Assembly (NCBI GenBank): GCA_023135835.1 | Contig: JAGLSI010000001.1 | Coordinates: 2,400-66,399, forward strand | DNA from: Minisyncoccota bacterium | Lineage (GTDB): Bacteria; Patescibacteriota; Minisyncoccia; Phycocordibacterales; UBA12079 | Direction of reading: 5' to 3' | DNA length: 64,000 nt | Shown: in pieces, positions 17,484 to 57,987 of the stretch | How positions within the stretch are numbered: position 1 is the first letter of the stretch | How the letters are laid out: every line of letters begins with the position of its first letter | Position numbers and translations under genes: made by a program | Notes under the pieces: generated by a model | What the model saw: only the letters and a program-made list of their open reading frames with translations | What the model was told of the DNA's origin: nothing | Databases searched by the model: none

Positions 17484-17518
17484 TTTTAACGGCTACATTA
17501 ACGTAGCCGTTAAAATTT
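17484..17518 (+). terminator. terminator hairpin ttttaacggctac...gtagccgttaaaa
   Basis: member of a recurring AACGGCTA..TAGCCGTT hairpin family (also 35421, 40268). Confidence 0.55.
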
Positions 17519-23528: not shown

Positions 23529-23727
23529 TAGTTGAAAGTTCTTAAAGTCTATAAAGTTAAAAGTGAAAAAATTTGCAGAGCAAATTTTTATAACTCTTAA
23601 CTAAAATAAAAACTTTATAAACTTTTAACTTTATATGCACTGCATATAATTCCTACACTCGGATTATATGAAAATTCATTTTCATAAATCCTCACTTGAA
23701 ATTATAAACTTTTAACTAATTAAAATT
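23529..23727 (+). repeat. inverted-repeat leader element copy C (expanded, ~200 bp)
   Basis: GTTGAAAGTTCTTAAAGTCTATAAAGT...gaaaaaatttgcagagcaaattttt...AAACTTTTAACTAA. Confidence 0.65.
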
Positions 23728-33658: not shown

Positions 33659-33853
33659 TTTGTTTAAAAACTCTTGACTTTTTTATTCACTTTGCTATTA
33701 TATAGAAAGTACTTGAATCTTGGCTTGCCAATATTTAGGTACTATGAAAAGAGTCATTATTCCTTCGGGGGTTCTGGCTTTTTTCATTGTCAAAATTCAC
33801 TTATTTAATAGTAGCGCTTGGAGCGCTGTTACTAAAATTCAGATAATATTTAC

Positions 33854-33915
33854 AGCGCTTGGAGCGCTGTAATAGGGTAATATAATTTAATTATGAATAA
33901 TATAAATTTAAAAAC
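33854..33915 (+). repeat. direct repeat (copy 1) of promoter region plus first 7 codons of gene 35132 (MNNINLK then stop)
   Basis: ~60 bp identical to 35095-35156, includes AGCGCTTGGAGCGCT palindrome. Confidence 0.7.
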
Positions 33916-33941
33916 AAAATGAGAGTCAACTATTCCAGTTA

Positions 33942-33963
33942 ACCTGCCTTTGCCGGCAGGCAG
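33942..33963. repeat. GC palindrome CCTGCCTTTGCCGGCAGGCAGG nested in a longer hairpin (33912-33995)
   Basis: member of 4-copy family (22969, 33942, 56330, 58004). Confidence 0.55.
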
Positions 33964-34040
33964 GCTGGAGTAATTAACTCTCATTTTGTTTTTAGTTTCT
34001 CTTGATTTAATCCAATATTTTTAATAAAATTAATAGTATT

Positions 34041-34727
34041 ATGCAAAATAAAAATTTACAAATAGGTTTAATTACAGGTGTATTATTAGTAATTTTGGTT
34101 TTTTATGTTTATCAAGATTTATCTATTAAAGATGATGGTATAGTAGCAACAACAACTGGTCAGGTAGTAAATTTATCTGATGATTTAAATACTGCAGGAA
34201 ATGATAATTTGATAATTAAGGAGATTAAAGATGACAATATTCAAAACACAAATGTTCTTATAATGCCTAACCTAGATAGAGAAATAGAGTTTTTAGAGAA
34301 CTTTCCCGAAGAAGCTAGGCAAATCATGATTGATAGAATAAATACAGTAGTGCAGGATATAAAAGATAAACCAGGTTCTTATGACGATTGGATCTCTTTA
34401 GGATTGCAGAGGAAAATAATAGAGGACTATGAGGGGGTTGAATTAGCTTGGGAGTATGCAAAGTACTTAGAACCAGATAGATTCCTTGCTTGGAGTAATT
34501 TAGGTGATTTAAATGCATATTATTTAAGTAATAATATAAAAGCAGAGGAAAATTATATTAAAGCTATAGAATTAAACACTCATCAAATACAAACATATAT
34601 TAAAATTGTAGAGTTTTATAAAGAATTCTTAAACGATACAGAAAAAGCTATTTCTATATTAGAAAAGGGGATAGAAGTAAATCCTAATTCTCAAGAATTA
34701 AAAGACCTCCTATCTACCCTAAATTAG
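34041..34727 (+). CDS. N-terminally anchored protein with TPR-like C-terminal helices
   Basis: TM LQIGLITGVLLVILVFYVY; AWSNLGDLNAYYLSNNIKAEENYIKAIELN TPR-like repeats. Confidence 0.5.
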   Translation: MQNKNLQIGLITGVLLVILVFYVYQDLSIKDDGIVATTTGQVVNLSDDLNTAGNDNLIIKEIKDDNIQNTNVLIMPNLDREIEFLENFPEEARQIMIDRINTVVQDIKDKPGSYDDWISLGLQRKIIEDYEGVELAWEYAKYLEPDRFLAWSNLGDLNAYYLSNNIKAEENYIKAIELNTHQIQTYIKIVEFYKEFLNDTEKAISILEKGIEVNPNSQELKDLLSTLN

Positions 34728-34755
34728 TCGCGCTCGGAGCGCGACTAATCTTTAG

Positions 34756-34764
34756 TTATCCACA
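34756..34764 (+). promoter_or_regulatory. perfect DnaA box TTATCCACA upstream of TATAAT at 34797
   Basis: exact consensus 9-mer. Confidence 0.4.
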
Positions 34765-34812
34765 AGTTATCAAGGTTTTTGGGGGATATTTAAGGGTATA
34801 ATATAGCTATGA

Positions 34813-34913
34813 ATCCCGTTAGAGATTTGATAAAAATAGACAAAACGGGAATGAGAAATTAATAATTTAAATAATAGGTAATTTATTAAAAGTAAATTAT
34901 CTCTAACGGGATG
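34813..34913 (+). promoter_or_regulatory. conserved leader stem ATCCCGTTAGAGAT / ATCTCTAACGGGAT (perfect complement) overlapping AUG at 34911
   Basis: third and most perfect copy of the secE-type leader. Confidence 0.5.
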
Positions 34914-35054
34914 AATAAGACATCTTTTAAGTTTATAAGTGGTTTTGTGTTGATTTTAGTCGTTTCTTTAGGGGTTTTAGTCTATTTTAGTACTGACAGA
35001 GATATAGAAAAAGATATTATTCCAGCAGAAAACTTAGCAGCAGAACAAATTTAA
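34911..35054 (+). CDS. small N-terminally anchored protein (47 aa), not in ORF track
   Basis: ATG placed exactly as in the other two leader copies; TM FISGFVLILVVSLGVLVYF. Confidence 0.35.
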   Translation: MNKTSFKFISGFVLILVVSLGVLVYFSTDRDIEKDIIPAENLAAEQI

Positions 35055-35094
35055 CAGAATATTGCAGCGCTCCAAGCGCTGCAATTAATAGTAG

Positions 35095-35156
35095 CGCTTG
35101 GAGCGCTGTAATAGGGTAATATAATTTAATTATGAATAATATAAATTTAAAAAAAT
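35095..35156 (+). repeat. direct repeat (copy 2) spanning promoter and 5' end of 35132 gene
   Basis: identical to 33854-33915. Confidence 0.7.
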
Positions 35157-35395: not shown

Positions 35396-35516
35396 TTAAA
35401 GTTTTTTAAAATAAACAAAAAAATCTAACGGCTATGAACTTATAGCTGTTAGATTTTTTATATAGAACGGTTTATTTTGATATTGCTTAGTTTGTGTAAG
35501 TGTATTTATATAAACA

Positions 35517-35545: not shown

Positions 35546-35806
35546 TTGATACATGAGTTAATTATTTACTTTTTATTAAATATTATGAATAAATTACATA
35601 AAAGAGAAAAATTTAAAAGGTTAGCAACTTCTAGAACAATGGATGTTTTAAAAAGATTGCAGGTTCTTTCTAATTGTTCTAATCGTAGTGCTTATGATTA
35701 TAACGAAGAAGATATAAATAAAATATTTTTAACAATTGATAAGGCGGTAAAAGATTCTAAGTCGAAATTTCATTACCCTAAAGAAAAAATTAATTTTAAA
35801 TTATAA
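35546..35806 (+). CDS. hypothetical small basic protein, first gene of cassette (alt start 35585)
   Basis: 86-aa ORF, no recognisable motif. Confidence 0.35.
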   Translation: MIHELIIYFLLNIMNKLHKREKFKRLATSRTMDVLKRLQVLSNCSNRSAYDYNEEDINKIFLTIDKAVKDSKSKFHYPKEKINFKL

Positions 35807-35810
35807 TATT

Positions 35811-37508
35811 ATGTCTATACAAGGAAAAATATCTCCTAGAATTATTCAGTCTATATCAACATTATATAATGATACTAATCGTGTAATTCTTGAATTCATT
35901 GATAACTCAATAGATAGTGCTGAAGAATACTTTGATTCTTCTAACAATGGTTATATAAGACCGATTAAAATTATTTTAGAGATAGATGGAAAAAATAATA
36001 AAGATGGGGTTGTCAGCATTTCCGATAATTGTAAAGGTATGTTTAACATTGAAAAGATAGTCCAAAACATAGGTAATTCTGATAAAAAAGCACAGCCATG
36101 GACGAATGGGCAATTTGGTTATGGAATGTGTTCTTTTATTGCTTGTTGTAGTGAATTAAAAGTTGTTTCTAGGTTTGAAAAAGGAAAGATTTTTGAAATA
36201 AATATTTTAAAGGATCATTTTTTAGTTGATGATCAAAAAGATTTTCTTTTTTCTGATCCTATTATAAATAGTAATTTTGAATATGATACTGGGACTAAGG
36301 TAGTATTAAAAATGTTTGGTAAAAGTGATTGGAAAGATATAGACATTAAAGAGATCCAAGTTGAAATAGAAAAGCATTTTGAATTGTTACTAAATAGAAC
36401 TAATTTAGAAATTAAATTAATTTCAAATGGGAATGAGTCTATCTGTAAACCTTTCGATTATTCTTTGCATGAGGGAAGAGAGATAAATGAATATTTGGAA
36501 AATTCATTTAATTCACTTCTTTGTATTGATAAACCAATTCACTTGTTTATAAAAGTAACCGAAGGAAAAGATGTTAATAAAAGACCTATTTTTATTGTTA
36601 AAGGGAGAAGAATTGCTGAAATAAAAGATATTAAAGCTTTTAAGTCAAAAAATAAAAGTGATATTTGGAATCATCCTAATATAACTGGATATATAGATTT
36701 GGGGAAATCCATAGAACCTGATATATCAAGAATAAATGGTTTTAGCCCCCAATACAAAGATAAGATGAATATTATATTTAATTGGTTAATATCAAAAGAA
36801 TCAGATATTTTAGATTTAATTAAAGAAGATAATGAAAGTACTCAAGAAAAGCATTATCAACAGTTAGAAGATATTTTAAGCAAAGCTTTATCAAAAATCG
36901 CTCGGATAGATTCTATGAATTTTAGAACCGACATTATTTCTGGAAAAGAACTTATTCTAGAAAAAGGTGCTATTGGTAGTGGTATAGGAATTTCTGCTCC
37001 ACTCCCTGGGTCTGGTGAGCTTGGCGGTGAGGGAGGAGGAGGCTCTGATTTTCTTGAAGGAGATAATCCTGATGATCAACTTGGTGGAAATAAAAACTTA
37101 GCCAAAGAAAGTGATAGTCTTTTTGATGATAAAGAACCAGAGGGAAAAAAGAGAAGAAAAAGTGGTTTTAATATCAAAATTTCTGATCTAGAACCCAATG
37201 TTGATATAAACACAGAAAAACAAATTAAATCTCGTTTAATTGGTGATACTATTGAGATTTTTAAAAAACATCCTGAATTTGAAAAAAGAGTTGGGCATTT
37301 TCGTGGTGGAAGGCCGAAGATAACTCAAAGGTTAATAACTTATTTAGCTGGGGAAATCACGGTTCATTATAAAGATAGGTTTTATTCAAAAACAGGACAA
37401 CCAGAATATAATATAAAAATGTTTGAGAGTTTAGTTGAATCAATTTATCTTTTTGAGGATTTATTAAGGGATTTTGTTGAAAAAGATTTATCATCATGGA
37501 ACAAATAA
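35811..37508 (+). CDS. GHKL-superfamily ATPase (MutL/MORC/GyrB-type Bergerat fold) with long C-terminal region of unknown function
   Basis: N-box ILEFIDNSIDSAEE, G1 ISDNCKGM, G2 TNGQFGYGM within first 130 aa; Gly-rich linker GSGELGGEGGGGSD. Confidence 0.75.
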   Translation: MSIQGKISPRIIQSISTLYNDTNRVILEFIDNSIDSAEEYFDSSNNGYIRPIKIILEIDGKNNKDGVVSISDNCKGMFNIEKIVQNIGNSDKKAQPWTNGQFGYGMCSFIACCSELKVVSRFEKGKIFEINILKDHFLVDDQKDFLFSDPIINSNFEYDTGTKVVLKMFGKSDWKDIDIKEIQVEIEKHFELLLNRTNLEIKLISNGNESICKPFDYSLHEGREINEYLENSFNSLLCIDKPIHLFIKVTEGKDVNKRPIFIVKGRRIAEIKDIKAFKSKNKSDIWNHPNITGYIDLGKSIEPDISRINGFSPQYKDKMNIIFNWLISKESDILDLIKEDNESTQEKHYQQLEDILSKALSKIARIDSMNFRTDIISGKELILEKGAIGSGIGISAPLPGSGELGGEGGGGSDFLEGDNPDDQLGGNKNLAKESDSLFDDKEPEGKKRRKSGFNIKISDLEPNVDINTEKQIKSRLIGDTIEIFKKHPEFEKRVGHFRGGRPKITQRLITYLAGEITVHYKDRFYSKTGQPEYNIKMFESLVESIYLFEDLLRDFVEKDLSSWNK

Positions 37509-38380
37509 ATTTACAAAAACTTATAAAACAGATTTCACCTCTTTATAATTCTTATAAAGAGTCTAAGGGTAATATTAATGGAACAGAAGCATTATTTATA
37601 ATGTGGGAAATAGGAGAACTTTTGAAGAAAAAAATTGAAGAGTTTGGTATCGCTCCTCATAATTTATATAGAAAGATATATGGAAAAGCTGAAGGAAAAG
37701 AAGATATCATTCAAAGGAGCTATATTACGAGAGAGTTTTTAGGGAGAGCTTATCGTATAAGAAATATCTTTGAAAATAAAAATGATATTGAAAAAGATTT
37801 TCCTAATTTGAAAAAATTTATTTTGTTTAGAGAAGCAATGCCCTTTTTTGATAATAAAAAATATATGTTTAAAGGAAGAGATAGAGAAGATTTATTAACT
37901 ATTCTAAACAGTAACGAATCCTCAGATCTTATTTTTAAAAGAATTAAATTGTTACAAAAAGAAAAGATTGGAATAAAGAATTCAAGAAATCAAAAATTAA
38001 TTGAGTTACAGCCACAAAAAGAAATTTTTATAACTTTTTATAATTATGTATTTAATTTAATAAAAGATAACAATTACAGAGATACCAGAGAAAAAGTTTT
38101 GCCTTTAATAAATAATTCATTAATTAGCAAACTTTCTTCAAATACTAGCGCTTTAGCCCAAGAAGGACTAGTATACAAAAATATAGATGAAGAAATCTTT
38201 GATGATTATTGGATTTCTTACAGTAAACTATTGAAAGGTTTTTCTGAGCAAATGGACGCAAAAGAAAGAAGGAGATTTAGGCGATTAATATCTCCTGAAC
38301 GTATAATAAAATTAGCTGATATGTTACAGGTAATAACCTCTGAAAAATTATTTGTAAATTTTAAAAATCAGTTAAATTAA
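37496..38380 (+). CDS. hypothetical protein, overlaps upstream stop by 13 nt
   Basis: 294-aa ORF, 13-nt overlap with GHKL gene; no known motif. Confidence 0.5.
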   Translation: MEQINLQKLIKQISPLYNSYKESKGNINGTEALFIMWEIGELLKKKIEEFGIAPHNLYRKIYGKAEGKEDIIQRSYITREFLGRAYRIRNIFENKNDIEKDFPNLKKFILFREAMPFFDNKKYMFKGRDREDLLTILNSNESSDLIFKRIKLLQKEKIGIKNSRNQKLIELQPQKEIFITFYNYVFNLIKDNNYRDTREKVLPLINNSLISKLSSNTSALAQEGLVYKNIDEEIFDDYWISYSKLLKGFSEQMDAKERRRFRRLISPERIIKLADMLQVITSEKLFVNFKNQLN

Positions 38381-38388
38381 TTTAAGTC

Positions 38389-39936
38389 ATGAATTTTGAT
38401 GTTGATTCTAATATTTTTGATCAAAAAGAAGACCATTTAAAAACTAGGATAGAATCCCTAGATTTTTCTAGTAAGACAAAAATTTTGTTAAAAAAAGACA
38501 ATATATTAACTGTAAGAGGTTTATTAAAACGAACAGAAAAAGAATTAAAAAATAAATATAACTTAAGCAGATCAAATATAGACATAACTTTAAGAAAATT
38601 AAATTTTTTAAACTCAAAAATAAAAAATAAAGAAAAACAAAATAAAGGAGAAATATCAGATATTTCTGATGAATTAGATTTAAAAAATTGTTTTGAAGAA
38701 ATTTATATAGATAAATCGGAAGATGTTTTAGAAGTTTTTTCTAATTGGTTTGGTTTTGATGAAAAAATAATAAAGAGCAAGTCTAGAAAAAGTGAGATTG
38801 TAGATGTACGAGATTTAATAATTTATTTTTTACGTGAATATGGAGAGTTATCATTTCCTTATATAGGAGAATTATTAGGGGGTCGTGATCATACCACCAT
38901 CATTTATGCTTATAACAAAATAAAGAAAAAAATAAAAAATATAAGAGATTTTGAAAAAAAGTTTTTAAGTCTTATCAAAGAAAGTAACAAAATAAAAGAA
39001 AAAAAAGAATATATAAAAAGGATTCTAATTCCAATAATAGAAGTTTTGGTTTCTGAAAATAATTCTAAAAAAGGGGTTAAAATGGTTTCAGAAAGAAATA
39101 ATTATATTCTTCAATTATATAGAGAAGGATTAATTCTTGATAAAATAGGTAAAAAGATGGGAATTTCTAGGGAAAGAGTTCGTCAAATAGTTAAAAAAAC
39201 TATAGTACAATTAGCTATAAATAAATCAGTTTCTACTGGAGCAGAACTAAATTTTGATTTTCTTATTGAAGATGAGAAAAGGAAAAGAAAGGAAACTCAA
39301 CTTATTGCTAATCCTCCAAAAATAAAGACTATAAAAAAGAGATATTGGAGCAGAGATCATAGAAAATGTAAAATGTGCGAAAGAATTATTTATAAGCATG
39401 TTAGTAATGGTTTATGTGAAGAATGTACAGGTAGTTTTAGAGGAAAAAATAGAGAAAATATTATTTTGTTACATGAAAATAAATGTGATTTATGTGATGT
39501 CTTAAGAGAAGAAGCTAAAACACTTTATAAAAGAGATTTGTATATTATGAGAAATAAAATTGTGTGTTGTAGAGATTGCTTTTTAAAATTAACAGGAAAA
39601 ACTTTAGGTTCTTATAAAAATTATGAATGGAGTAGATTTTATCCCCAATGTAAAAAATGTGGGACAAAAGATATTCCTCATGCAAAATTAGGTCTTTGTG
39701 AAGAATGTTGCCTGTTTTTATCAGATAGCCAAAGAGAAAAAATTATTCAAGATAATAAGAGTGTGTGCTGTGTGTGTGGTATAAGCAGAGATGAAGCAAA
39801 AAGTAAATTTAAAAGAGATTTACATATCTGGAAAAACAAAAAAACATTTTGTCGAAAATGCCATCTTGTAGAGACAGGTAAAGTTCTTAGCGATTATAGA
39901 AAAAATAATTGGAAAAAGTTTTATAAAAATTATTAA
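38389..39936 (+). CDS. multi-DNA-binding-domain protein: RNAP alpha-CTD-like HhH + DnaA domain-IV HTH + sigma-70 region-4 HTH + tandem Zn ribbons
   Basis: IESLDFSSKTKILLKKDNILTVRGLLKRTEKEL (alpha-CTD pattern); FPYIGELLGGRDHTTIIYAYNKI (DnaA domain IV signature); LDKIGKKMGISRERVRQI (sigma r4.2); C-terminal A-B-A'-B' CxxC...CxxC repeats. Confidence 0.7.
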   Translation: MNFDVDSNIFDQKEDHLKTRIESLDFSSKTKILLKKDNILTVRGLLKRTEKELKNKYNLSRSNIDITLRKLNFLNSKIKNKEKQNKGEISDISDELDLKNCFEEIYIDKSEDVLEVFSNWFGFDEKIIKSKSRKSEIVDVRDLIIYFLREYGELSFPYIGELLGGRDHTTIIYAYNKIKKKIKNIRDFEKKFLSLIKESNKIKEKKEYIKRILIPIIEVLVSENNSKKGVKMVSERNNYILQLYREGLILDKIGKKMGISRERVRQIVKKTIVQLAINKSVSTGAELNFDFLIEDEKRKRKETQLIANPPKIKTIKKRYWSRDHRKCKMCERIIYKHVSNGLCEECTGSFRGKNRENIILLHENKCDLCDVLREEAKTLYKRDLYIMRNKIVCCRDCFLKLTGKTLGSYKNYEWSRFYPQCKKCGTKDIPHAKLGLCEECCLFLSDSQREKIIQDNKSVCCVCGISRDEAKSKFKRDLHIWKNKKTFCRKCHLVETGKVLSDYRKNNWKKFYKNY

Positions 39937-39957
39937 TTTATTATAATAACAAAAAAT

Positions 39958-40254
39958 ATGATGATATTTGTTTATGTGATAATCGGAGTGGTAATTGGGT
40001 ACTTTGTTTTTGGTGGGTCTATGAATAAGAATGCTAAGAAAAACGAAGTTTTGGAGATTTTGGATGAAAAAGATAAGAAGATTCTGGCTTTGATTGAAGA
40101 AAAAGAGAAAGTTACTAATAATGATATAGAGAAATTGTTAGGGATAGCAGATAGTACTGCAACTAAATATTTACAACAATTGGAAGATAAAGGAAAAATT
40201 ATACAAAGAGGAAAAACTGGGAAATATACTTATTACGAAAAGGTTTCAAAGTAG
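39958..40254 (+). CDS. small membrane-anchored winged-HTH protein (paralog of 51833-52111)
   Basis: TM MMIFVYVIIGVVIGYFVF then DIEKLLGIADSTATKYLQQLEDKGKIIQRGKTGKYTYY; ~65% identity to second copy. Confidence 0.6.
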   Translation: MMIFVYVIIGVVIGYFVFGGSMNKNAKKNEVLEILDEKDKKILALIEEKEKVTNNDIEKLLGIADSTATKYLQQLEDKGKIIQRGKTGKYTYYEKVSK

Positions 40255-40267
40255 GTTGATAATTAAA

Positions 40268-40302
40268 TTTTTAACGGCTACGGTATCATAGCCGTTAAAA
40301 AT
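40268..40302 (+). terminator. terminator hairpin tttttaacggctacggtatcatagccgttaaaaat
   Basis: 10-bp stem plus flanking A/T runs, ends the cassette. Confidence 0.6.
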
Positions 40303-42938: not shown

Positions 42939-43427
42939 ATGGCAATAAATAAAGATAGAAAAAAAGAGATTTATGAAAAAGTACAAGGAATTTTAAAAGA
43001 TTCTGCTTCTGTTGTTTTCGTAAATTTCAAAGGATTAAATGTTACTGATACTACTCAGTTGCGTAATAATCTTAGGGATGAAGATTCATCATATAGTGTA
43101 ATTAAGAAATCCCTTGTTAGAAAAGCTTTAGAGAACTATTCTTTTAAAGGTGATATGCCTGAATTAGAAGGAGAGTTAGCTTTGGCTTATGGTGAGGATT
43201 TAATTGCTCCTGCAAGAGGGGTGTATGAATTTCAAAAAAAGAACAAAGAAAATATTGCTATTTTAGGAGGTATTTTTGAAGGTTCTTTTATGAATAAAGA
43301 AAAAATGCTTTCTATTGCTCAAATTCCAGCACCTCAAATTTTGAAAGGACAATTTGTAAATCTTATAAATTCACCAATTCAAGGTTTTGTAACTGCGTTG
43401 AGTAAAATAGCGGACAAAAAGATTTAA
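42939..43427 (+). CDS. rplJ: 50S ribosomal protein L10
   Basis: KKEIYEKVQGILKDSASVVFVNFKGLNVTDTTQLRNNLR pattern; followed by rplL. Confidence 0.9.
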   Translation: MAINKDRKKEIYEKVQGILKDSASVVFVNFKGLNVTDTTQLRNNLRDEDSSYSVIKKSLVRKALENYSFKGDMPELEGELALAYGEDLIAPARGVYEFQKKNKENIAILGGIFEGSFMNKEKMLSIAQIPAPQILKGQFVNLINSPIQGFVTALSKIADKKI

Positions 43428-43445
43428 TTTCTGTCGAAATTAAAT

Positions 43446-43559
43446 CGAGTCAAAAGTTTATAAAGTTCATAAAGTCTATAAAATAAAATTACAAAGTAAT
43501 TTTTTTAATGACAATAAACTTTTAACTTTTAACATTACAAACTTTAAACTAATATAATT
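43446..43559 (+). repeat. inverted-repeat leader element copy D
   Basis: GTCAAAAGTTTATAAAGTTCATAAAGTCTATAAAAT ... aaaattacaaagtaatttt ... AAACTTTTAACTTTTAACATTACAAACTTTAAACTAA. Confidence 0.7.
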
Positions 43560-44087
43560 ATGATTGAAGAAAAAAAAGATGATGTAGTGGAAGAGGTTGA
43601 AGCTACTGAAGCTCCAGTTGAAGCAGAGGCTCCTGTTGAAGAAGTTAAGGAAGAAAAGAAAGCAGAAGCTCCAGCTGAAGAAGCAAAAGAAGATGAAGGG
43701 GAAGAAGTAGAAGTTCCCAAAAAATTCAAAGCATTAGTAGATGGAATTGAAGAAATGTCAGTTCTTGATTTGCATGAATTAGTAAAGTTATTAGAAAAGA
43801 AATTTGGTGTTTCTGCTGCTGCTGTAGCTGTGGCTGGAGGATCAGCAGGCGGAGGTGATGATGCTGGTGAAGAAAAAACTTCATTTGATGTTGAGCTTAC
43901 ATCTGCAGGAGACCAAAAAATTGCTGTGATCAAAGCAGTTAAAGGTGCTTTAGGTCTAGGACTTAAGGAGGCAAAAGAATTGGTTGACGCTGCTCCAGCT
44001 TCATTAAAGAAAGATATGAAAAAGGAAGAAGCAGAAGCTTTAAAGAAAGATATTGAAGAAGCAGGAGGAAAAGTAGAGTTGAAATAA
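43560..44087 (+). CDS. rplL: 50S ribosomal protein L7/L12 with ~55-aa acidic Glu/Ala/Pro-rich N-terminal extension
   Basis: [27 protein letters not shown] and C-terminal [24 protein letters not shown]; no in-frame alternative ATG downstream of 43560. Confidence 0.85.
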
Positions 44088-44102
44088 TGATTAAGAAAAA
44101 AC

Positions 44103-44140
44103 AGGCGTCTACCAAAGGTAGACGCCTGTTTTTTATTGAC
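44103..44140 (+). terminator. rho-independent terminator (aaaaacaggcgtctaccaaaggtagacgcctgtttttt)
   Basis: 14-bp stem plus T6. Confidence 0.7.
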
Positions 44141-44213
44141 TAATAATAAAAAAACAATATACTCTATTTTAGATAGTTAAAATATATTTTATTTTTTTAA
44201 AAGGTAAAAGGAG

Positions 44214-44507
44214 TTGGTTATGGCGAAGAAAATTGTTTTTTACGGGAAAGAAGATTTTTCTATCATACTTATTCTCTTGAATGATACTGTTATGGAGAAG
44301 GTACTCGCCGATATTGTTAAAGGGGATAGAGAAAATGGTAAAACAATGCCAATTATTGTTTTAAAGGATACTGATATAAAAGGTTTGTCTCAGCGTCTCT
44401 TTAGAGAATTTGAAGAAGATATTTCGGTTCCTATTGGTGAAGGCTTGTTTCAATTTAAAGATGCTGAAGACTTAACAAAGTATATTCAGCAGCAAGAGAA
44501 TATATGA
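44214..44507 (+). CDS. hypothetical protein
   Basis: 97-aa ORF, SD aaaggtaaaaggag, terminator 44518-44551. Confidence 0.4.
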   Translation: MVMAKKIVFYGKEDFSIILILLNDTVMEKVLADIVKGDRENGKTMPIIVLKDTDIKGLSQRLFREFEEDISVPIGEGLFQFKDAEDLTKYIQQQENI

Positions 44508-44633
44508 AGGGATATTGATGGCTGGGTTCTTAGGACCCAGCCATTTTTTAATTTTGTTGCTGGTATAAAAAATAGATGTTATTATTAATTGTAATATATA
44601 AAAGTGAGTGTATAAATCTCATTTTAAATTACT

Positions 44634-45251
44634 ATGGAAACATTAAGTAAATTATTTGGTAACGCTGCTAAAATAAAAATAATGAGACTGTTTTTGTCTA
44701 ATGATGATGTTATTTTTGATAATGCTGAAATATCAAAAAGGACAAAAGTATCTTTGGTAAATCTTCGTAAAGAACTGAAAATTTTTGAAAGTATTTCTTT
44801 GATTAAAAAAAGAATTTTTTATAAAGAAGTTATTAAAAAAGTAAAAGGAAAAGAAGTTGTTGAAAAGAAAAAAACAAGCGGTTGGATTTTAGACCCAAGT
44901 TTTTCTTTGCTAGCTCCTCTAAAAAATTTATTAATTAAAGGAAGTCCTGTTGCTCAAAAAGATATAATTAACCGTTTGAAGGGAGGAGGAGTTCTTAAAT
45001 TAATAATTACTTCAGGTGTATTTATTCAAGAACCAGATAGTAGAGTAGATATTTTAATAGTAGGAGATAATTTAAATAGTTCTTATTTAGAACGAGCAAT
45101 TCGTATATTAGAGTCTGAGCTAGGTCAAGAATTAAAGTATTTTATATTAGAAACTGATGATTTTAATTATCGTTTGGGAGTTTATGATAAACTTTTAAGG
45201 GATATTTTAGACTATTCTCATAAGAAAATCGTAAATAAGTTGGATTTTTAG
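44634..45251 (+). CDS. hypothetical protein with N-terminal wHTH
   Basis: AKIKIMRLFLSNDDVIFDNAEISKRTKVSLVNLRKELKIFESISLIKK. Confidence 0.45.
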   Translation: METLSKLFGNAAKIKIMRLFLSNDDVIFDNAEISKRTKVSLVNLRKELKIFESISLIKKRIFYKEVIKKVKGKEVVEKKKTSGWILDPSFSLLAPLKNLLIKGSPVAQKDIINRLKGGGVLKLIITSGVFIQEPDSRVDILIVGDNLNSSYLERAIRILESELGQELKYFILETDDFNYRLGVYDKLLRDILDYSHKKIVNKLDF

Positions 45252-45266
45252 TATCTAAATTAGGTT

Positions 45267-45275
45267 TTATCCACA
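45267..45275 (+). promoter_or_regulatory. perfect DnaA box TTATCCACA upstream of 45457 gene
   Basis: exact consensus 9-mer; TATAGACATATAAT -10-like 20 bp downstream. Confidence 0.4.
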
Positions 45276-45456
45276 GTTTTTGTATATTTTTATAGACATA
45301 TAATGATATTATATAAATATGGTATTTATTAATACTAAAATAAAGGTCGTTAAGTCATAAAACCAATGATTTTTTGGTGGTTGATTATTGACCATTCAAT
45401 TAAGTTTTGGGGATATGATGATAATTCATTATTAGTTTTAATTTTTTAGAAAAAAT

Positions 45457-46140
45457 ATGATATTACAAACATGGAGTGAAGTATTGTCACAATCTTTTCA
45501 AAGTCTTTGGATTGGAGTAATGGGCTTTGTTCCAAACTTAATAATCGCAATAATAATTTTTATTATTGGGTGGGTTGTTGGAGTTTTATTTGGGAGAGTA
45601 GTTTCTCAGATAATTCATTCATTAGGTATAGACAAACTTTTGAGAAGTGCTAGTGTTGAAAAAACATTAAATAAAGCAGGTTTCAATTTAAACGCCGGTA
45701 ATTTTTTCGGTGCTTTAGTGAAATGGTTTATTATTGTAGTTTTTGCCGTAGCTGCCTTTGATGTATTAGGGCTTGACCAAGTAAATTTATTTTTACAACA
45801 AGTAGTTCTACTATATCTACCTAGAGTAATTGCAGCAGCAGCTATTCTTTTGATTGCTGTTATTATTGCAGATGCTACTGAGAATCTTGTAATAGGTTCC
45901 GCAAAAGCAGTTGGTGCTAGAAAATCTCAATTTGGATTTTTAGGTACATCTGTTAAGTGGGCAATTTGGGTATTCGCTGGATTGATGGCTCTTTATCAAT
46001 TAGGAGTTGCATCAGCTTTTATTCAAACTTTGTTTACAGGATTAATCGTTGCTATTTCTCTATCATTGGGATTAGCTTTCGGATTAGGAGGAAAGACTGC
46101 CGCGTCAGATGTGATTGAAGACTTAAGAAAGAAAATGTAA
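45457..46140 (+). CDS. membrane protein with repeated 'conserved TM helix' (MscS-associated type) segments
   Basis: two similar TM hairpins; terminator 46160-46198. Confidence 0.55.
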   Translation: MILQTWSEVLSQSFQSLWIGVMGFVPNLIIAIIIFIIGWVVGVLFGRVVSQIIHSLGIDKLLRSASVEKTLNKAGFNLNAGNFFGALVKWFIIVVFAVAAFDVLGLDQVNLFLQQVVLLYLPRVIAAAAILLIAVIIADATENLVIGSAKAVGARKSQFGFLGTSVKWAIWVFAGLMALYQLGVASAFIQTLFTGLIVAISLSLGLAFGLGGKTAASDVIEDLRKKM

Positions 46141-46247
46141 CCATAAGTAAAACCTAAAAATAACCTCCACTTAATTTAAGTGGAGGTTATTTTTTTTGAA
46201 TTTTTGTTTTTTAAACAAAAATTTGGAAAAAAGTAATTTAATTTTTA

Positions 46248-46275
46248 TTGACATAGAATAAAATTCTGTTAATAT
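46248..46275 (+). promoter_or_regulatory. promoter TTGACA-16-TAATAT for rpsS cluster
   Basis: perfect -35. Confidence 0.45.
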
Positions 46276-46313
46276 ATAACAAGCTCCGAGTGATTAAGAG
46301 CTATTTTAAATTT

Positions 46314-46643
46314 ATGACAAGATCACTAAAAAAAGGTCCTTATGTGGACGAAAGACTTTTAAAAAAAATAGAAGGTAAAAAGCCAGAAGATTTAGGTGTG
46401 ATAAAAACTTGGTCAAGATCTAGTCAGATTTCACCTGAAATGGTAGGTTTTACTTTTGGAGTTCACAATGGAAAAAATCATATTGAAGTGTTGATAACGG
46501 AAGATATTGTCGGACATCGTTTAGGAGAATTTTCTCCTACAAAAAAATTCGTGAAGCATGGAGGAAAGATGCAGAAAGAATTAGAGCAAAAGAAGAAAGA
46601 AGCTGAAGTTACAGCGGCTAAAGCTGCTAAAGCTAGTGTTTAA
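46314..46643 (+). CDS. rpsS: 30S ribosomal protein S19 (ORF track start 46290)
   Basis: [20 protein letters not shown]...[17 protein letters not shown]. Confidence 0.9.
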
Positions 46644-49420: not shown

Positions 49421-49525
49421 TCAAAAGTTAAAAGTTCATAAAGTCTATAAAGTAAAGATTTACGAAGTAAATTTTAAAAAAAAGACTTTCGGCTTTCGAC
49501 TTTATAGACTTTAGACTAAATTAAT
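49421..49525 (+). repeat. inverted-repeat leader element copy E
   Basis: GTCAAAAGTTAAAAGTTCATAAAGTCTATAAAGT...aagatttacgaagtaaatttt...GACTTTCGGCTTTCGACTTTATAGACTTTAGACTAA. Confidence 0.7.
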
Positions 49526-50080
49526 ATGAATAGTATAAAAGAAAAACAAAATACAGCTTTTGATACATTAAAATCAGAGTTTGAATATAAAAATAAGATG
49601 CAATCTCCTAAATTAGAAAAGGTTGTTTTGAATGTGGGAGTAGGTTCAATAAGGTCTGATAAGAAAAAAACTGAATTAGTTGAGGATAGATTAACTAAAA
49701 TTGCAGGACAAAAACCAGCTTATAAAAATGCTAAAAAATCAATCGCTGCCTTTAAATTAAGAGAAGGTGAAAAGGTTGGATACCAGGTTATTTTAAGAGG
49801 AAAAAGAATGTTTGGTTTTTTGGATAAATTAGTAAGTGTTGCTTTGCCTAGAACAAAAGATTTTCGTGGTTTAAACTTGAAGTCAATTGATGAGATGGGA
49901 AATGCGACATTAGGGATTAAAGAACATGTTATATTCCCTGAAACTTCAGACGAAGAAATGAGAGATATCTTTGGAATGTCTATTACTATAGTAACTACTG
50001 CTAAAAATAAAAAAGAAGCAGAGGCTTTTTTGAGACATATAGGATTTCCTTTTAAAAAAGCAGAAGAAAAGAAAAAATAA
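49526..50080 (+). CDS. rplE: 50S ribosomal protein L5
   Basis: KLEKVVLNVGVGS...PAYKNAKKSIAAFKLREGEKVG. Confidence 0.9.
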   Translation: MNSIKEKQNTAFDTLKSEFEYKNKMQSPKLEKVVLNVGVGSIRSDKKKTELVEDRLTKIAGQKPAYKNAKKSIAAFKLREGEKVGYQVILRGKRMFGFLDKLVSVALPRTKDFRGLNLKSIDEMGNATLGIKEHVIFPETSDEEMRDIFGMSITIVTTAKNKKEAEAFLRHIGFPFKKAEEKKK

Positions 50081-50095
50081 GTTTTAAACAATAAA

Positions 50096-50131
50096 AAGGC
50101 GTTGGGCTTTAGTCCAACGCCTTTTTATTGT
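50096..50131 (+). terminator. terminator aaaaggcgttgggctttagtccaacgccttttt
   Basis: 10-bp stem plus T5 right after rplE, inside the normally continuous spc operon. Confidence 0.6.
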
Positions 50132-50137
50132 TTAAAT

Positions 50138-50165
50138 TTCAATGGCTATGCCCATAGCCATTGAA
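50138..50165. repeat. 28-bp palindromic repeat TTCAATGGCTATGCCCATAGCCATTGAA (left boundary of R-M cassette)
   Basis: identical copy at 52144-52171. Confidence 0.8.
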
Positions 50166-50225
50166 ATTAAGCTTAAAATATAGTTTTGTGAATAATTATT
50201 TTTGAGGTAAAATATAAGTAGTTAT

Positions 50226-51218
50226 ATGCAAAAAGAAAATATTAAAACTAAAATAATAGTTCAAAACTTGTTTTCTTTAGGGTCTGATAAGAAGAAAGAT
50301 AAAACAGGCTTTACTTTTATTGACTTATTTGCGGGGATAGGAGGGACTCGTATAGGGTTTGAAAAAGCTGGAGGTGAATGTGTTTTTACGTCTGAATGGG
50401 ATAAATATTGTCAAGAAACATACAAAGCTAATTTTGGAGAAGTTCCATATGGAGATATAACAAAAATTAAAGAATATGAAATACCTAATTTTGATGTTTT
50501 AGTAGCAGGATTTCCTTGCCAACCATTTAGTTCTATAGGTAAAAGAGAGGGTTTTATGCACACTACTCAAGGAACTTTATTTTACGATGTTTTAAGAATC
50601 ATAAATCATAAAAAGAACAAAGCATTTTTATTGGAAAATGTTCCAGGGTTACTAACTCATGATAATGGAAATACTTTTAAGATTATATTAGATTCTTTGA
50701 AAGAAGCAGGTTATAAGGTTTTTAGTAAAGTATTGGATGCTTCTAATTTCGGAGTTCCTCAAAAAAGAAAGAGAATTTATATAGTTGGTTTTAGAAAAGA
50801 TTTGTTTGAAGGTGAAGATTTTGTATTTCCTGAGGGAAATAATAAACAATCTTTTATAAACGAACACTTAGAAGATAATGCTTTAGGTTATTCTATTTCT
50901 AAACATTTACAAAAAAGTTATTTGTTTAAAAAAGATGATGGTAGACCAATAATAGTAGATAAAAATTCTAAAATTCAAACAAAAACATTAGTTTCTACTT
51001 ATCATAAAATTCAAAGGTTAACAGGAACTTTTGTTAAAGATGGAGAAACAGGAATTAGATTACTAACTGAAAATGAATGTAAAGCGATCATGGGTTTCCC
51101 AAAGGACTTTATTATTCCTGTGTCAAGAACTCAGATGTATAGACAAATGGGTAATTCAGTTGTTGTTCCAGTTATCGAAGCTGTAGCAAGAGAAATAGAA
51201 AACAAATTAAAATTATAA
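50226..51218 (+). CDS. DNA (cytosine-5)-methyltransferase (type II R-M modification subunit)
   Basis: motif I FIDLFAGIGGTRIGF, motif IV FPCQPFS, motif VI ENVPGL, motif VIII QKRKRIYIVG, motif X NSVVVPV. Confidence 0.9.
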   Translation: MQKENIKTKIIVQNLFSLGSDKKKDKTGFTFIDLFAGIGGTRIGFEKAGGECVFTSEWDKYCQETYKANFGEVPYGDITKIKEYEIPNFDVLVAGFPCQPFSSIGKREGFMHTTQGTLFYDVLRIINHKKNKAFLLENVPGLLTHDNGNTFKIILDSLKEAGYKVFSKVLDASNFGVPQKRKRIYIVGFRKDLFEGEDFVFPEGNNKQSFINEHLEDNALGYSISKHLQKSYLFKKDDGRPIIVDKNSKIQTKTLVSTYHKIQRLTGTFVKDGETGIRLLTENECKAIMGFPKDFIIPVSRTQMYRQMGNSVVVPVIEAVAREIENKLKL

Positions 51219-51231
51219 AATAGTTATTTTT

Positions 51232-51828
51232 ATGAAAAAACATAAAATCAAAAAAATAAGTCAAAATAGTTTATTGGTTGAATATTTTCAGAATAATCCC
51301 AAGCGAGCTATTTCCCATCCTGAGGTGGTGGATTGGGTTATAAAAGAATTTAAGAAAAGAACAGGTAAAATTTTCAGAGATCCTGATAGAGGAATAAGAA
51401 AATTATATCAAAAAGGTTATTTAGTAAAAATTAAAAAAGGTGTTTATAAATATGATCCGTCGTTAATAAAGAAAAAAGAATTACAAGATTTTACATCAGC
51501 TATCAAGAAAAAGATTTTTGAACGAGATAGTTTTAAATGTGTTATGTGTGGTAAAGGAGAAAAAGATGGAGTTGAGATACATGCTGATCATATAAAACCA
51601 AAGGACTTAGGGGGAAAAGCTACTTTAGAAAATGGACAAACTCTCTGCAGCGCTCATAACTTTTTGAAGAAAAATTTAAAACAAACTGAAACTGGTAAGA
51701 AAATGTTTATACGTTTGTATGAATTATCTAAAAAAACTAAAGATAAAAAGCTTATTAAATTTTGCACAGAAATATTAGAGGTTTTTGAAACAAATAATAT
51801 TAACGGACACATTGAATGGAATAAATAA
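51232..51828 (+). CDS. HNH-family type II restriction endonuclease (N-terminal winged-helix, C-terminal HNH)
   Basis: CVMCG...HADHIKPKDLGG...ENGQTLCSAHN HNH motif; 13 bp after MTase stop. Confidence 0.7.
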   Translation: MKKHKIKKISQNSLLVEYFQNNPKRAISHPEVVDWVIKEFKKRTGKIFRDPDRGIRKLYQKGYLVKIKKGVYKYDPSLIKKKELQDFTSAIKKKIFERDSFKCVMCGKGEKDGVEIHADHIKPKDLGGKATLENGQTLCSAHNFLKKNLKQTETGKKMFIRLYELSKKTKDKKLIKFCTEILEVFETNNINGHIEWNK

Positions 51829-51832
51829 TAAA

Positions 51833-52111
51833 ATGACAATAATTTATATAATAATAGGAATAGCGATAGGGTATTTCGTGACAGTGGCTTTTGTTGGTGC
51901 TGGAAATAAAAAGGTTGAGAAAGAGCTTGACCAAGATGAAAAGATTTTGAATTTAATTGCTGAAAAGGAGAGGGTTACGAATGGGGATATACAAAAATTA
52001 CTTAGTATTGCAGATAGTACAGCCACTAAATATCTTCAAGAGCTTGAAGATAAAGGAGAAATTAAACAACAAGGCAAAGCAGGACGCTTTGTCTATTATG
52101 AAAAAATTTAA
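51833..52111 (+). CDS. small membrane-anchored winged-HTH protein (paralog of 39958-40254); ORF-track start 51785 overlaps HNH gene
   Basis: TM MTIIYIIIGIAIGYFVTVAFVGAG then DIQKLLSIADSTATKYLQELEDKGEIKQQGKAGRFVYY. Confidence 0.55.
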   Translation: MTIIYIIIGIAIGYFVTVAFVGAGNKKVEKELDQDEKILNLIAEKERVTNGDIQKLLSIADSTATKYLQELEDKGEIKQQGKAGRFVYYEKI

Positions 52112-52143
52112 TAAATTCAGAAAACCGTTGATTTTCAATCTAT

Positions 52144-52171
52144 TTCAATGGCTATGCCCATAGCCATTGAA
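52144..52171. repeat. 28-bp palindromic repeat TTCAATGGCTATGCCCATAGCCATTGAA (right boundary of R-M cassette)
   Basis: identical to 50138-50165. Confidence 0.8.
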
Positions 52172-52312
52172 TTTTATAATTGTTTGCGTTTGAAAAAGCT
52201 AAGAAGCTAAAAACCTAATATCCTAATAAGCTAAAAATGTTGACATCAAAGGGTGTTTTTGATAGGATAAGCAAGTATTCATTAATTATAATGACTATCT
52301 TTTAAAAAGATT

Positions 52313-52498
52313 ATGGCAAAAAAATCAGTAATAGCTAGAGCAAATAAAACTCCAAAATTTTCTACAAAAGCAGTAAATAGATGTTTTAAGTGTGGGAGAA
52401 AAAGAGGTTATATGAGACAATTTGATTTATGTCGTATTTGTTTTAGAGAATTAGCAAATGAAGGTAAGATTCCTGGAATCAGAAAATCATCTTGGTAG
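52313..52498 (+). CDS. rpsZ: 30S ribosomal protein S14 type Z (zinc-binding)
   Basis: 61 aa, [23 protein letters not shown]. Confidence 0.9.
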
Positions 52499-52611
52499 AG
52501 TAAACGAGTCAAAAGTCAAAAGCCCATAAAGTCTATAAAGTGAAAAATCGCAAAGCGATTTTTCCAAAAAAACTTTTGACTTTCGACTTTACAGACTTTA
52601 GACTAAATATT
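52499..52611 (+). repeat. inverted-repeat leader element copy F
   Basis: GTCAAAAGTCAAAAGCCCATAAAGTCTATAAAGT...gaaaaatcgcaaagcgattttt...GACTTTCGACTTTACAGACTTTAGACTAA. Confidence 0.7.
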
Positions 52612-57125: not shown

Positions 57126-57219
57126 ATTTTAGATTTTAAATTTTAAATTAATAAAAATTTGATTTGCAAATTTTTAACTTTTAACTTTATAGACTTTATG
57201 AACTTTTGACTAATTTATT
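57126..57219 (+). repeat. inverted-repeat leader element copy G (degenerate 5' arm)
   Basis: aatttgatttgcaaattt hairpin + AACTTTTAACTTTATAGACTTTATGAACTTTTGACTAA 3' arm before map AUG. Confidence 0.55.
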
Positions 57220-57987
57220 ATGCTTCCAAATATATATACAGAAGAAGAAATAGAAATTTTACGAGAAGGCGGTAAAAGGCTTAATTTTATTTTGCATGAA
57301 GTAGCTAAGATTGTAAAAGAGGGAAGCACTCCAGATGACCTAAATTCTTTAGCTGAAAAATTGATTTATGAACAAAGAGATAGTCCTGCTTTTTTAAATT
57401 ATACAACTGATGGACATAGACCATACCCGTCTTCTTTGTGTGTATCTGTAAATGACGAGGCTGTTCATGGAATCGGAAAAGGGAATAAGGTTCCTCTAAA
57501 AGAAGGAGATATTGTAAATATTGATTTAGGCTTAACTCATAAAGGATTAATTACTGATAAGACTTTAATGCTCGGAGTGGGTAAAATAGAATCAGATGAT
57601 ATAAATTTAATAGAAACTACTAAATTAGCTTTAGAAGCTGGAATTAAGGCTATAAAAGCAGGAAATACTACTGGAGATATCGGAAATGCGATAGAAACTT
57701 TAGTAAAAAGTAGAGGTTTTAATGTAATGAAAGAATTGGGAGGGCATGGAGTTGGTAAAGATGTTCATGAAAAACCTTTTGTTCCTAATTTTGGAAGAAA
57801 AGGTGAAGGTGATATCTTAAAAGAAGGAATGGTTATTGCCTTAGAACCAATTGTAACAAAAGGAGAGGGGAAAATTTATACAGCAAATGACGGGCATACT
57901 TATAGAAGTATAGATGGTGCTAATGTTGCTCAGTGGGAAGATACTGTTTTAGTGACAAAAGGAGGTTTTGAAATTTTAACTAGGTAA
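57220..57987 (+). CDS. map: type I methionine aminopeptidase
   Basis: metal ligands in pita-bread fold: D..D..H..E..E pattern (NIDLGLTHKGLITD, HGVGKDVHE, ALEPIV). Confidence 0.9.
   Translation: MLPNIYTEEEIEILREGGKRLNFILHEVAKIVKEGSTPDDLNSLAEKLIYEQRDSPAFLNYTTDGHRPYPSSLCVSVNDEAVHGIGKGNKVPLKEGDIVNIDLGLTHKGLITDKTLMLGVGKIESDDINLIETTKLALEAGIKAIKAGNTTGDIGNAIETLVKSRGFNVMKELGGHGVGKDVHEKPFVPNFGRKGEGDILKEGMVIALEPIVTKGEGKIYTANDGHTYRSIDGANVAQWEDTVLVTKGGFEILTR

Follow-up and report, generated by a model that had tools for sequence, protein, structure and literature searches.

How did a restriction-modification (R-M) cassette come to lie between two ribosomal protein genes, and do the identical palindromes on either side of it tell how it arrived? 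Phylogeny and the quality assessment of metagenome-assembled genomes (MAGs) both rely on ribosomal protein clusters as a stable backbone. Insertions within these clusters are rare in well-studied bacteria (PMC8046335). The cassette lies in a 64,000-nt stretch of contig JAGLSI010000001.1 (assembly GCA_023135835.1, positions 2,400 to 66,399), referred to here as the window, from a low-GC member of the Paceibacteria within the Patescibacteria, or Candidate Phyla Radiation (CPR); the host genome has a guanine-cytosine (GC) content of 29.8%. We found that the junction between rplE and rpsZ is a permissive, variable slot for accessory genes across the Paceibacteria, and that the cassette is an insertion relative to two closely related lineages (L104 and L106). 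With a probability of roughly 0.55, we favour a reading in which a mobile Type II R-M pair, together with a unit formed by a transmembrane winged helix-turn-helix (TM-wHTH) gene and its hairpin, occupied this pre-existing slot, and the flanking repeats arose from a recombination event that duplicated a hairpin already resident there.

Between the repeats lie, in order, genes for a C5 methyltransferase, a winged helix (wH)/HNH endonuclease and the TM-wHTH protein, and these are flanked by rplE and rpsZ. The features of the junction are as follows:

49526-50080, + strand: rplE (ribosomal protein uL5; Pfam Ribosomal_L5 and L5_C), last gene of the upstream transcription unit
50083-50136, + strand: predicted intrinsic terminator of rplE, a perfect stem of 23-25 bp followed by a T-run (-35.5 kcal/mol, z -12.8)
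50136-50165, + strand: left copy of the 30-bp repeat (28-mer hairpin at 50138-50165), with no T-rich tail and accordingly no call from the terminator scan
50186-50213, + strand: putative cassette promoter, TTGTGA-16-TAAAAT (consensus scan, 9/12), ending 12 nt before the methyltransferase ATG
50226-51218, + strand: C5 cytosine DNA methyltransferase, M.HhaI-like (PF00145, E 2e-104, positions 1-323 of 324)
51232-51828, + strand: putative restriction endonuclease (HNH; PF01844, E 8e-9)
51833-52111, + strand: TM-wHTH gene, 92 aa, membrane helix at the N-terminus plus a winged helix-turn-helix (HTH_24, E 3e-9)
52142-52175, + strand: right copy of the 30-bp repeat with a TTTT tail (28-mer at 52144-52171), called terminator-like by the scan
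52240-52268, + strand: putative rpsZ promoter, TTGACA-17-TAGGAT with a TG extension, the best promoter-like site of the region (10/12)
52313-52498, + strand: rpsZ (zinc-type ribosomal protein uS14, 61 aa; Pfam Ribosomal_S14), first gene of the downstream unit

The repeated sequence is the 28-mer TTCAATGGCTATGCCCATAGCCATTGAA, which has two exact matches on the + strand of the window, at 50138-50165 and 52144-52171, against an expectation of 0.00 from dinucleotide shuffles of the window. Full identity between the copies extends over 30/30 bp when the two flanking bases are included (50136-50165 and 52142-52171), and the direct repeat reaches ~32-33 bp if one mismatch is allowed. Both copies fold into a hairpin with a stem of 12-13 bp and a loop of 4 nt, with folding energies of -21 kcal/mol for the first copy with its flanks (z -7.6) and -15.7 kcal/mol for the second (z -5.0). 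The insert measures 2006 bp and holds three genes, none of them related to mobility, with ribosomal protein genes on both sides. A first-pass annotation of the window, made by reading the sequence, had described two identical 28-mers bracketing three genes between rplE and rpsZ, and exact-match search, Pfam and folding all confirmed this description. The same arrangement was found in a further MAG (GCA_030641385.1, contig DAOWHO010000007.1) and in two Logan runs, although these runs may be related samples, and the identical uL5 protein on NCBI and Logan contigs has the same neighbours there. Since independent assemblies agree on the arrangement, misassembly is unlikely. The cassette is present on all contigs whose uL5 or uS14 is identical, so that no strain-level empty allele was found among them.

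We took the uL5 locus from 75 species-level Paceibacteria genomes and calculated gap statistics on the 54 loci with both rplE and rpsZ. The nearest lineages were found by a uL5 protein search followed by a look-up of the genomic context, with long contigs only. L104/L105 (GCA_030641525.1), whose uL5 is 79-80% identical and which share the upstream synteny, have an empty junction of 187 nt, and L106-L109 (uL5 79% identical) have an empty junction of 291 nt. We regard the cassette as an insertion because these closest long-contig relatives have empty junctions; it should be noted that L104 and L106-L109 are species different from the window organism (uL5 ~79%) and not strains of the same species. 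Homologues of the three cassette genes were absent from the junction in all 75 related genomes. The first-pass annotation had predicted that an empty site should retain one copy of the 28-mer. This was true in part: L106-L109 have a single degenerate hairpin (TTTATTGACTATATCTATAGCCATTGAATTTT) in the syntenic position, between terminator and promoter, which in L106 is identical to the 28-mer at 22/28 positions and at 16/16 over the right arm plus TTTT, but the empty site of L104 has no such hairpin.

Across the 54 loci, the median gap between rplE and rpsZ was 1068 nt and the range -8 to 4271 nt; the gap was under 100 nt in 3/54 and 700 nt or more in 36/54. The location had been thought an unusual one-off, a view that a slot of such variability does not bear out. 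In ten genomes the slot holds a class I S-adenosylmethionine (SAM) methyltransferase gene, and its further cargo includes MazF, YafQ/ParE, PaaX/Cas2-like, NYN, EamA and inositol monophosphatase genes, DNA-alkylation-repair, NUDIX, GNAT and hydrolase genes and many uncharacterised open reading frames (ORFs). L110/L111 (uL5 76% identical) have a gene for a 1957-aa surface protein directly 3' of rplE (L110 6661-12534, L111 878-6754); this slot occupant contains F5/8 type C, fibronectin type III and Pur_ac_phosph_N domains. In the closest GTDB relative (L004, uL5 91% identical), the contig ends 70 nt after rplE (5529-5598), apparently within the terminator, which fits assembly breakage at a variable junction. 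In Gammaproteobacteria and Bacilli, the rare insertions into the ribosomal cluster are found mostly between operons (PMC8046335), and the Paceibacteria rplE|rpsZ junction behaves like a boundary of this kind. We found no description in the literature of rplE|rpsZ as a variable site in CPR bacteria, an absence which is weak evidence of novelty.

The rho-independent terminator which had been proposed after rplE was supported by both folding and the terminator scan (50083-50136), and relatives L104, L106 and L110 have post-rplE terminators at the equivalent position. For rpsZ, the earlier proposal of TTGACA at 52239 and TATAAT at 52285 needs two corrections: TTGACA lies at 52240-52245, and TATAAT lies at 52287-52292, 41 nt from the -35 box, and is therefore not its partner, which is instead TAGGAT. 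The empty sites of L104 and L106 both have the rplE terminator and TTGAC(A/T)-17-TGaTAGGAT, and the sequence 3' of the promoter is also related (aagcaagta in the window and L106, taacgaagt in L104). A further lineage, L112, has a closely related rpsZ promoter, TTGACA-17-TAATAT, with the same spacer. Because terminator and promoter are already present at empty sites, the insertion did not split the transcription of the spc operon, as the first-pass annotation had supposed. The predicted terminator and promoter predate the insertion, and the rplE|rpsZ spacer in Paceibacteria is a boundary of two transcription units and not the interior of an operon.

Within the cassette the genes are spaced by only 13 nt and 4 nt, and all three would probably be carried on one transcript, running from the promoter-like site after the left hairpin to the right hairpin and its U-tract. 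The site at 50186-50213 is a putative cassette promoter and a weak call, made by consensus matching. Transcription would restart at the rpsZ promoter after the cassette, which would insulate ribosomal gene expression from it.

The ribosomal cluster and the region upstream of rpsZ also showed other features. In the window (42939-46643), rplJ-rplL is followed by 3-4 non-ribosomal genes, including one for a protein with a mechanosensitive-channel domain, and then by rpsS; the usual rpsJ-rplC-rplD-rplW-rplB block is absent upstream of rpsS, and L104 (1-3127) has the same order. In higher-GC Paceibacteria (L011, L012, L027, L028, L043, L064, L065 and others), a leader lies ~110 nt upstream of rpsZ. 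It consists of invariant TAA and TGC motifs around a covarying hairpin, in which 6/8 predicted pairs show compensatory changes. This leader has no Rfam match, and it may serve a ribosomal protein encoded in the rpsZ-rpsH unit as a site of autoregulation.

We next consider the R-M pair. The best solved relative of the methyltransferase in the PDB is M.HhaI (E 7e-71), with an alignment spanning FxGxG, PCQ, ENV, QxRxR and GNSV, and other profiles agree (PADLOC MTase_II, E 8e-133; TIGR00675 dcm). The target-recognition region aligns poorly, so the recognition sequence is not transferable from HhaI. In an AlphaFold model built with 42 homologues (predicted local distance difference test score 84), the second protein opens with a winged helix (order H-E-H-H-E-E over residues 11-73), continues with an HNH domain whose zinc ligands are Cys/His and ends in a helical hairpin. 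D119, H120, N134, H142 and N143 are invariant in the 42 homologues, and C103, C106 and C139 are also conserved. Structural matches in the PDB were at domain level only, with E above 0.001 (cullin-type and Fur-type winged helices, a Geobacter HNH nickase and EcoKMcrA); no whole-protein match was found at E below 0.001, nor did any characterised enzyme match the whole wH-HNH protein.

Homologues of the HNH protein number 3514, the best 119 listed being 66-83% identical, and those of named source among the matches listed come from Patescibacteria, Ignavibacteria, Leptospiraceae and one Aenigmarchaeota archaeon. The methyltransferase-HNH pair recurs at 76-83% identity in four unrelated Patescibacteria contexts (L080-L085), where the methyltransferase (330-337 aa, 76-78% identical over its full length) always lies immediately 5' of the HNH gene. 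In one of these contexts a gene for Vsr, the very-short-patch mismatch-repair protein that typically accompanies 5-methylcytosine (m5C) methylation, lies downstream. None of the four contexts has a TM-wHTH gene or flanking repeats longer than 12 nt, and for this reason we take the mobile unit to be the two-gene pair; the idea that flanking repeats are a property of the R-M module was rejected on the same evidence. The pair is thus a horizontally acquired, mobile two-gene module. The mobility which had been assumed for the R-M genes was borne out, as the pair is adjacent in four unrelated contexts and absent from the junction in the closest long-contig relatives. We read it as a classical Type II R-M system with predicted activity, and as an ordinary one. 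Several palindromes are avoided in the window (TCGA, ACGT, GATC and CCGG, at ratios of 0.33-0.48), and GCGC, the HhaI site, is not. The same four are not avoided in contigs of other hosts of this R-M family, and some insert-free relatives do avoid them.

The third gene has a different history. Its product begins with the hydrophobic stretch MTIIYIIIGIAIGYFVTVAFVGAG, and we found eight homologues in the protein database and six distinct loci overall; a profile search of all ORFs in the 75 relatives gave none. These loci place the TM-wHTH gene at the 3' end of unrelated genes: Bro-N, ferric reductase, serine hydrolase, the R-M pair and one uncharacterised gene. In 5/6 loci a family hairpin follows the stop codon, starting 15 nt to ~45 nt after it, and the same stem, with differing loops, stands after the TM-wHTH gene in L087, L090, L112 and the window paralogue. 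The TM-wHTH gene and its hairpin are therefore one inherited unit at the 3' end of varied cargo, and the right copy of the 28-mer would be both the terminator of the cassette and the native companion of this gene. The first-pass annotation had counted the gene as a member of the R-M cassette, which cannot be upheld given that it is absent from the four other contexts of the pair and ends different cargo elsewhere. We found no description of the TM-wHTH-plus-palindrome unit in the literature, which is weak evidence of novelty. The paralogue and the other hairpins in the window are:

39958-40254, + strand: TM-wHTH paralogue (HTH_24; 72% nucleotide identity to 51928-52109), last gene of a four-gene cluster
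40270-40299, + strand: variant hairpin TTTAACGGCTAC..ATAGCCGTTAAA, 3' of the TM-wHTH paralogue, with two stem differences from the 28-mer, both compensated
17485-17514, + strand: variant hairpin of the same family, 3' of a class II aminoacyl-tRNA synthetase gene, likewise with two compensated stem differences
35425-35455, + strand: more diverged member TCTAACGGCTAT..ATAGCTGTTAGA, upstream of the 35.5-40.3 kb cluster

L112, whose uS14 is 89% identical, provides a second case at the same site, with TM-wHTH and a variant hairpin directly upstream of the rpsZ promoter and with DNA-alkylation repair, NUDIX, GNAT and serine hydrolase genes as the preceding cargo. The unit thus adjoins the rpsZ promoter twice, in the window and in L112. 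Positions 2333-3505 of L112 are 100% identical over 1173 nt to positions 1-1173 of L113, from a sister sample, across the serine hydrolase gene, TM-wHTH and the hairpin. This identity stops 16 nt past the hairpin, where L112 continues into the rpsZ promoter and rpsZ, and L113 into Pth and signal peptidase genes. The clustering of these breakpoints at the hairpin suggests either a real rearrangement or a chimeric join, the contigs having ~3.5x short-read coverage.

The cluster that ends with the paralogue (35586-40299) contains a small ORF, a GHKL/HATPase_c_3 protein (35811-37508), an uncharacterised 294-aa protein, a 515-aa protein and, at its end, the paralogue with its variant hairpin. The 515-aa protein combines RNA polymerase alpha-CTD, DnaA C-terminal and sigma-70 region 4 helix-turn-helix (HTH) domains. 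No PADLOC defence family matched this cluster.

The stem of the 28-mer belongs to a dispersed, terminator-like family of low-GC Paceibacteria which is found at the 3' ends of diverse genes. The window contains four to five family hairpins including variants, and ~35 kb from three close relatives contained none. When metagenome contigs were searched for this exact stem, whatever its loop, the scan gave at least 13 loci, 12/13 of those listed being without a TM-wHTH gene nearby; neighbours in the listed loci include ComM, Na/Ca exchanger|TruB, HisRS, LysM and PsbP-like genes. Across family members, 6 to 9 nt separate the conserved 11-nt arms. Outside the window, the 13 scanned loci and L090, 14 in all, show 12 different central sequences. 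The central loop TGCCCA was found only in the two window copies, the nearest being TACCCA in L096, and the exact 28-mer with its loop did not occur elsewhere among the matches listed. As only they share TGCCCA, the two window copies are real duplicates of each other. The first-pass annotation had considered that the 28-mer might prove to be a common terminator at many unrelated loci; this is so for the stem family, but the exact 28-mer with its loop was seen only here.

Three other origins of the hairpin were considered and rejected: a phage origin, since the hairpin pattern had no match in IMG/VR viral contigs; a DNA-uptake sequence, since single arms are absent outside hairpins in the window; and a known RNA family, since Rfam gave nothing at the gathering score for the window and seven related loci, where sub-threshold hits were generic hairpins. 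We found no description of repeats in Patescibacteria like the repetitive extragenic palindromic (REP) sequences, which is weak evidence of novelty. In L095 (2690-2795) and L103 (499-546), the family hairpin is the tip of a longer perfect palindrome, with at least 36 further complementary nt per side in L095.

These results bear on how the cassette arrived. In the sequence of events that we favour, the spacer probably held one hairpin copy before the insertion, and the recombination event that placed the cargo most likely duplicated this resident hairpin, which would leave two identical copies. Recombination at the resident hairpin appears likeliest because only the window copies share a loop and because a relative keeps a single degenerate copy. 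The suggestion that the repeats are a sign of the insertion mechanism therefore survives in part, in that the copies are true duplicates with a single counterpart in L106, but it is weakened by the dispersal of the family, most listed members of which lack a TM-wHTH gene. No recombinase was found among the tested window ORFs, and the mechanism is a proposed one.

Several observations weigh against this reading. Neither the cassette and its flanks nor the tested window ORFs yielded a recombinase, transposase or integrase; the sole recombination protein found was RecA. The hairpin is missing from the empty site of L104, which is as close a relative as L106. Flanking repeats above chance were found at 0/41 other occupied junctions, where the maximum identity between the ends of the rplE-rpsZ gap was 12 bp (15 bp in shuffles, 30 bp here), and we accordingly rejected the idea that flanking repeats are a property of the slot. 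In GC content the cassette does not differ from its surroundings, and base composition thus offers no separate evidence for recent transfer. For the R-M pair, k-mer avoidance pointed to no consistent target. The repeat, at 30 bp, is at the lower edge of the published >30 bp criterion for long target duplications (PMC2853133). Lastly, the cassette could have come to lie between two hairpins of the dispersed family that were homogenised later.

This last point can be developed into a full alternative, which we regard as possible although on the unlikely side. Here the cassette or the R-M pair landed by illegitimate recombination between family hairpins, and gene conversion made the copies identical; the spacer may have held two hairpins, or one resident and one after the wHTH gene, in which case the repeats are uninformative on mechanism. 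The family does occur at many unrelated loci, with five members or variants in the 64-kb window, the right copy is already accounted for as the native companion of TM-wHTH, and the literature recognises "chance insertion between repeated sequences" as a class of its own (PMC2853133). However, all other loci differ in the loop and only the window copies are identical, two flanking bases included, and the empty site of L106 has one degenerate copy and not two. Gene conversion between 28-bp tracts 2 kb apart would, moreover, itself be recombination at the hairpin.

An unlikely explanation is that of an undescribed system of mobile cassettes in low-GC Paceibacteria ending in TM-wHTH and the palindrome, which integrate at the hairpin with the spacer upstream of rpsZ as a preferred docking site. 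The recombinase would be encoded elsewhere, the hairpin would resemble an attachment site, and cargoes would be interchangeable, the R-M pair being one of several. Such a system would explain why in two lineages the wHTH gene and hairpin immediately precede the rpsZ promoter, with a different cargo in each, why the L112/L113 identity ends 16 nt after the hairpin and why the second window cluster, at 35.5-40.3 kb, is bounded by related hairpins; the 28-mer can also be parsed as 11+6+11, like Xer-type sites. Yet the tested window ORFs gave no recombinase, a spacing of 6-9 nt between the arms is unexpected for a fixed recombination core, and most hairpin loci are without a wHTH gene or obvious cargo, with six wHTH loci in total. 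The L112/L113 case itself comes from short-read contigs at ~3.5x, where a chimeric join is possible.

Still less probable, in our view, is that the palindromes are operators of a dimeric TM-wHTH protein which binds both ends of the cassette and controls the R-M genes in the manner of a C protein. Dimeric wHTH proteins typically have perfect palindromes as their sites, the left copy stands 20 nt ahead of the promoter-like site of the methyltransferase, stem changes between the two hairpin classes are symmetric and gene and hairpin co-occur in 5/6 loci. At the other wHTH loci, however, there is one copy, and it lies downstream of the gene; the same R-M pair occurs elsewhere without TM-wHTH; 12 hairpin loci have no wHTH gene nearby and the arm spacing varies; and the gene follows the restriction gene and falls outside the Xre-type C-protein family. 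Vertical inheritance of an ancient, fixed arrangement, which the first-pass annotation had pictured as the same genes in the same place without repeats, or an assembly artefact is largely refuted, for although cassette GC equals genome GC and the cassette is present wherever a contig has the identical uL5 or uS14, the nearest long-contig relatives have empty sites, no homologue stands at the junction in 75 genomes, close homologues of the pair lie in unrelated contexts and independent assemblies agree.

Other repeats were also found in the window. A compound palindromic intergenic element of ~95 nt, consisting of AGTCAAAAGTTCATAAAGTCTATAAAGT, a small hairpin and then ACTTTATAGACTTTAGACTAA, is present in seven copies:

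4093-4193, 22935-23056, 23530-23635, 43457-43552, 49426-49519, 52514-52606 and 57135-57221: copies of the ~95-nt element

Several of these copies stop ~6-12 nt short of a start codon (rplE, rpsH, rplL and others), and two of them bracket the rplE...rpsZ block. The elements fold as long hairpins (z -4 to -5.8), L096 has a 28-nt match and Rfam gave no match; they could be processing sites or terminator-promoter modules. At 33805-35153, three copies of a hairpin of a different family (AGCGCTTGGAGCGCTGT) stand around a TPR-containing ORF (34041-34727). In the copy at 35085-35153, the left flank is that of the 33805 copy and the right flank that of the 33854-33914 copy, with its -10 box and the first 8 codons of an ORF. 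The TPR gene is flanked by a duplication of 61-69 nt with a AGCGCTTGGAGCGCTGT-type hairpin at the junctions, which looks like recombination or duplication with a hairpin at the junction.

In this large CPR lineage, rplE|rpsZ is a routinely occupied accessory slot of fast turnover, holding R-M, toxin and other genes, and what is called the spc operon is two transcription units. The slot can break or confuse assemblies, as in the contig that ends 70 nt after rplE. The junction also offers a defined site for studying gene gain and loss in organisms which rely heavily on R-M defence. We consider the variability of the junction and the TM-wHTH-palindrome unit to be more interesting than the R-M pair, and the link between hairpin and wHTH gene to be most worth pursuing.

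We compared the locus to known systems. Like Type II R-M systems that pair an M.HhaI-like methyltransferase with an HNH (beta-beta-alpha-Me) nuclease, it has a full-length C5 methyltransferase and an adjacent, co-oriented HNH gene with zinc ligands, and the pair is conserved across contexts with a Vsr gene beside one copy. It differs from the HhaI system itself in that the target-recognition region does not align, and R.HhaI is not known to be an HNH enzyme. In R-M systems controlled by C proteins, an Xre-type C gene lies upstream of the restriction gene, with C-boxes upstream of the C gene. The present locus shares with these a small HTH protein in the R-M operon and palindromes nearby, but the gene is downstream of the restriction gene, encodes an HTH_24/MarR-like protein with a membrane anchor and is absent from four other contexts of the pair.

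Integron attC cassettes and the pdif modules of Acinetobacter (28-bp Xer sites) are small gene sets with palindromic sites that are moved by a recombinase acting in trans. A small gene set bounded by short palindromes, and a 28-mer which parses as 11+6+11, are points of likeness. The differences are the absence of an integrase and of attC architecture, an arm spacing of 6-9 nt and arms without resemblance to known dif sites. When the hairpin was compared with att, dif and attC sites, the cassette, flanks and tested ORFs contained no cognate recombinase, and no fixed core was seen. REP sequences and bacterial interspersed mosaic elements (BIMEs) are short, sequence-conserved intergenic palindromes at the 3' ends of many genes, with high copy number and an associated REP-associated tyrosine transposase (RAYT). 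The hairpin family resembles them in its terminator-like palindromes 3' of unrelated genes, its variable loops and its compensated stems, but has a strong link to TM-wHTH and appears to differ in having about five copies in the 64 kb covered and no RAYT-type transposase among the tested ORFs.

The comparison that bears most directly on the insertion is with repeat-flanked R-M systems. R-M systems have been described with direct repeats of 26-65 bp that are single-copy in the empty genome and with no mobility genes, for which site-specific recombination and chance insertion between repeats were given as alternatives (PMC2853133). The class was defined by a restriction and a modification gene in an insert under 20 kb, no mobility genes and a direct repeat >30 bp, although the tables also list a 26/26 case (PMC2853133). 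Our locus differs in that its 30-bp repeat is at the threshold and is a perfect hairpin of a dispersed family, not a unique sequence, and in that the insert also carries a non-R-M gene. It agrees in having both R-M genes in a 2-kb insert, no mobility genes and identical direct repeats. The single counterpart at an empty site may be the degenerate copy of L106-L109, which are of a different species (uL5 79%); L104 has none. By analogy, the locus may be placed as a further member of this class of repeat-flanked R-M insertions, with recombination at the resident hairpin as its probable mechanism.

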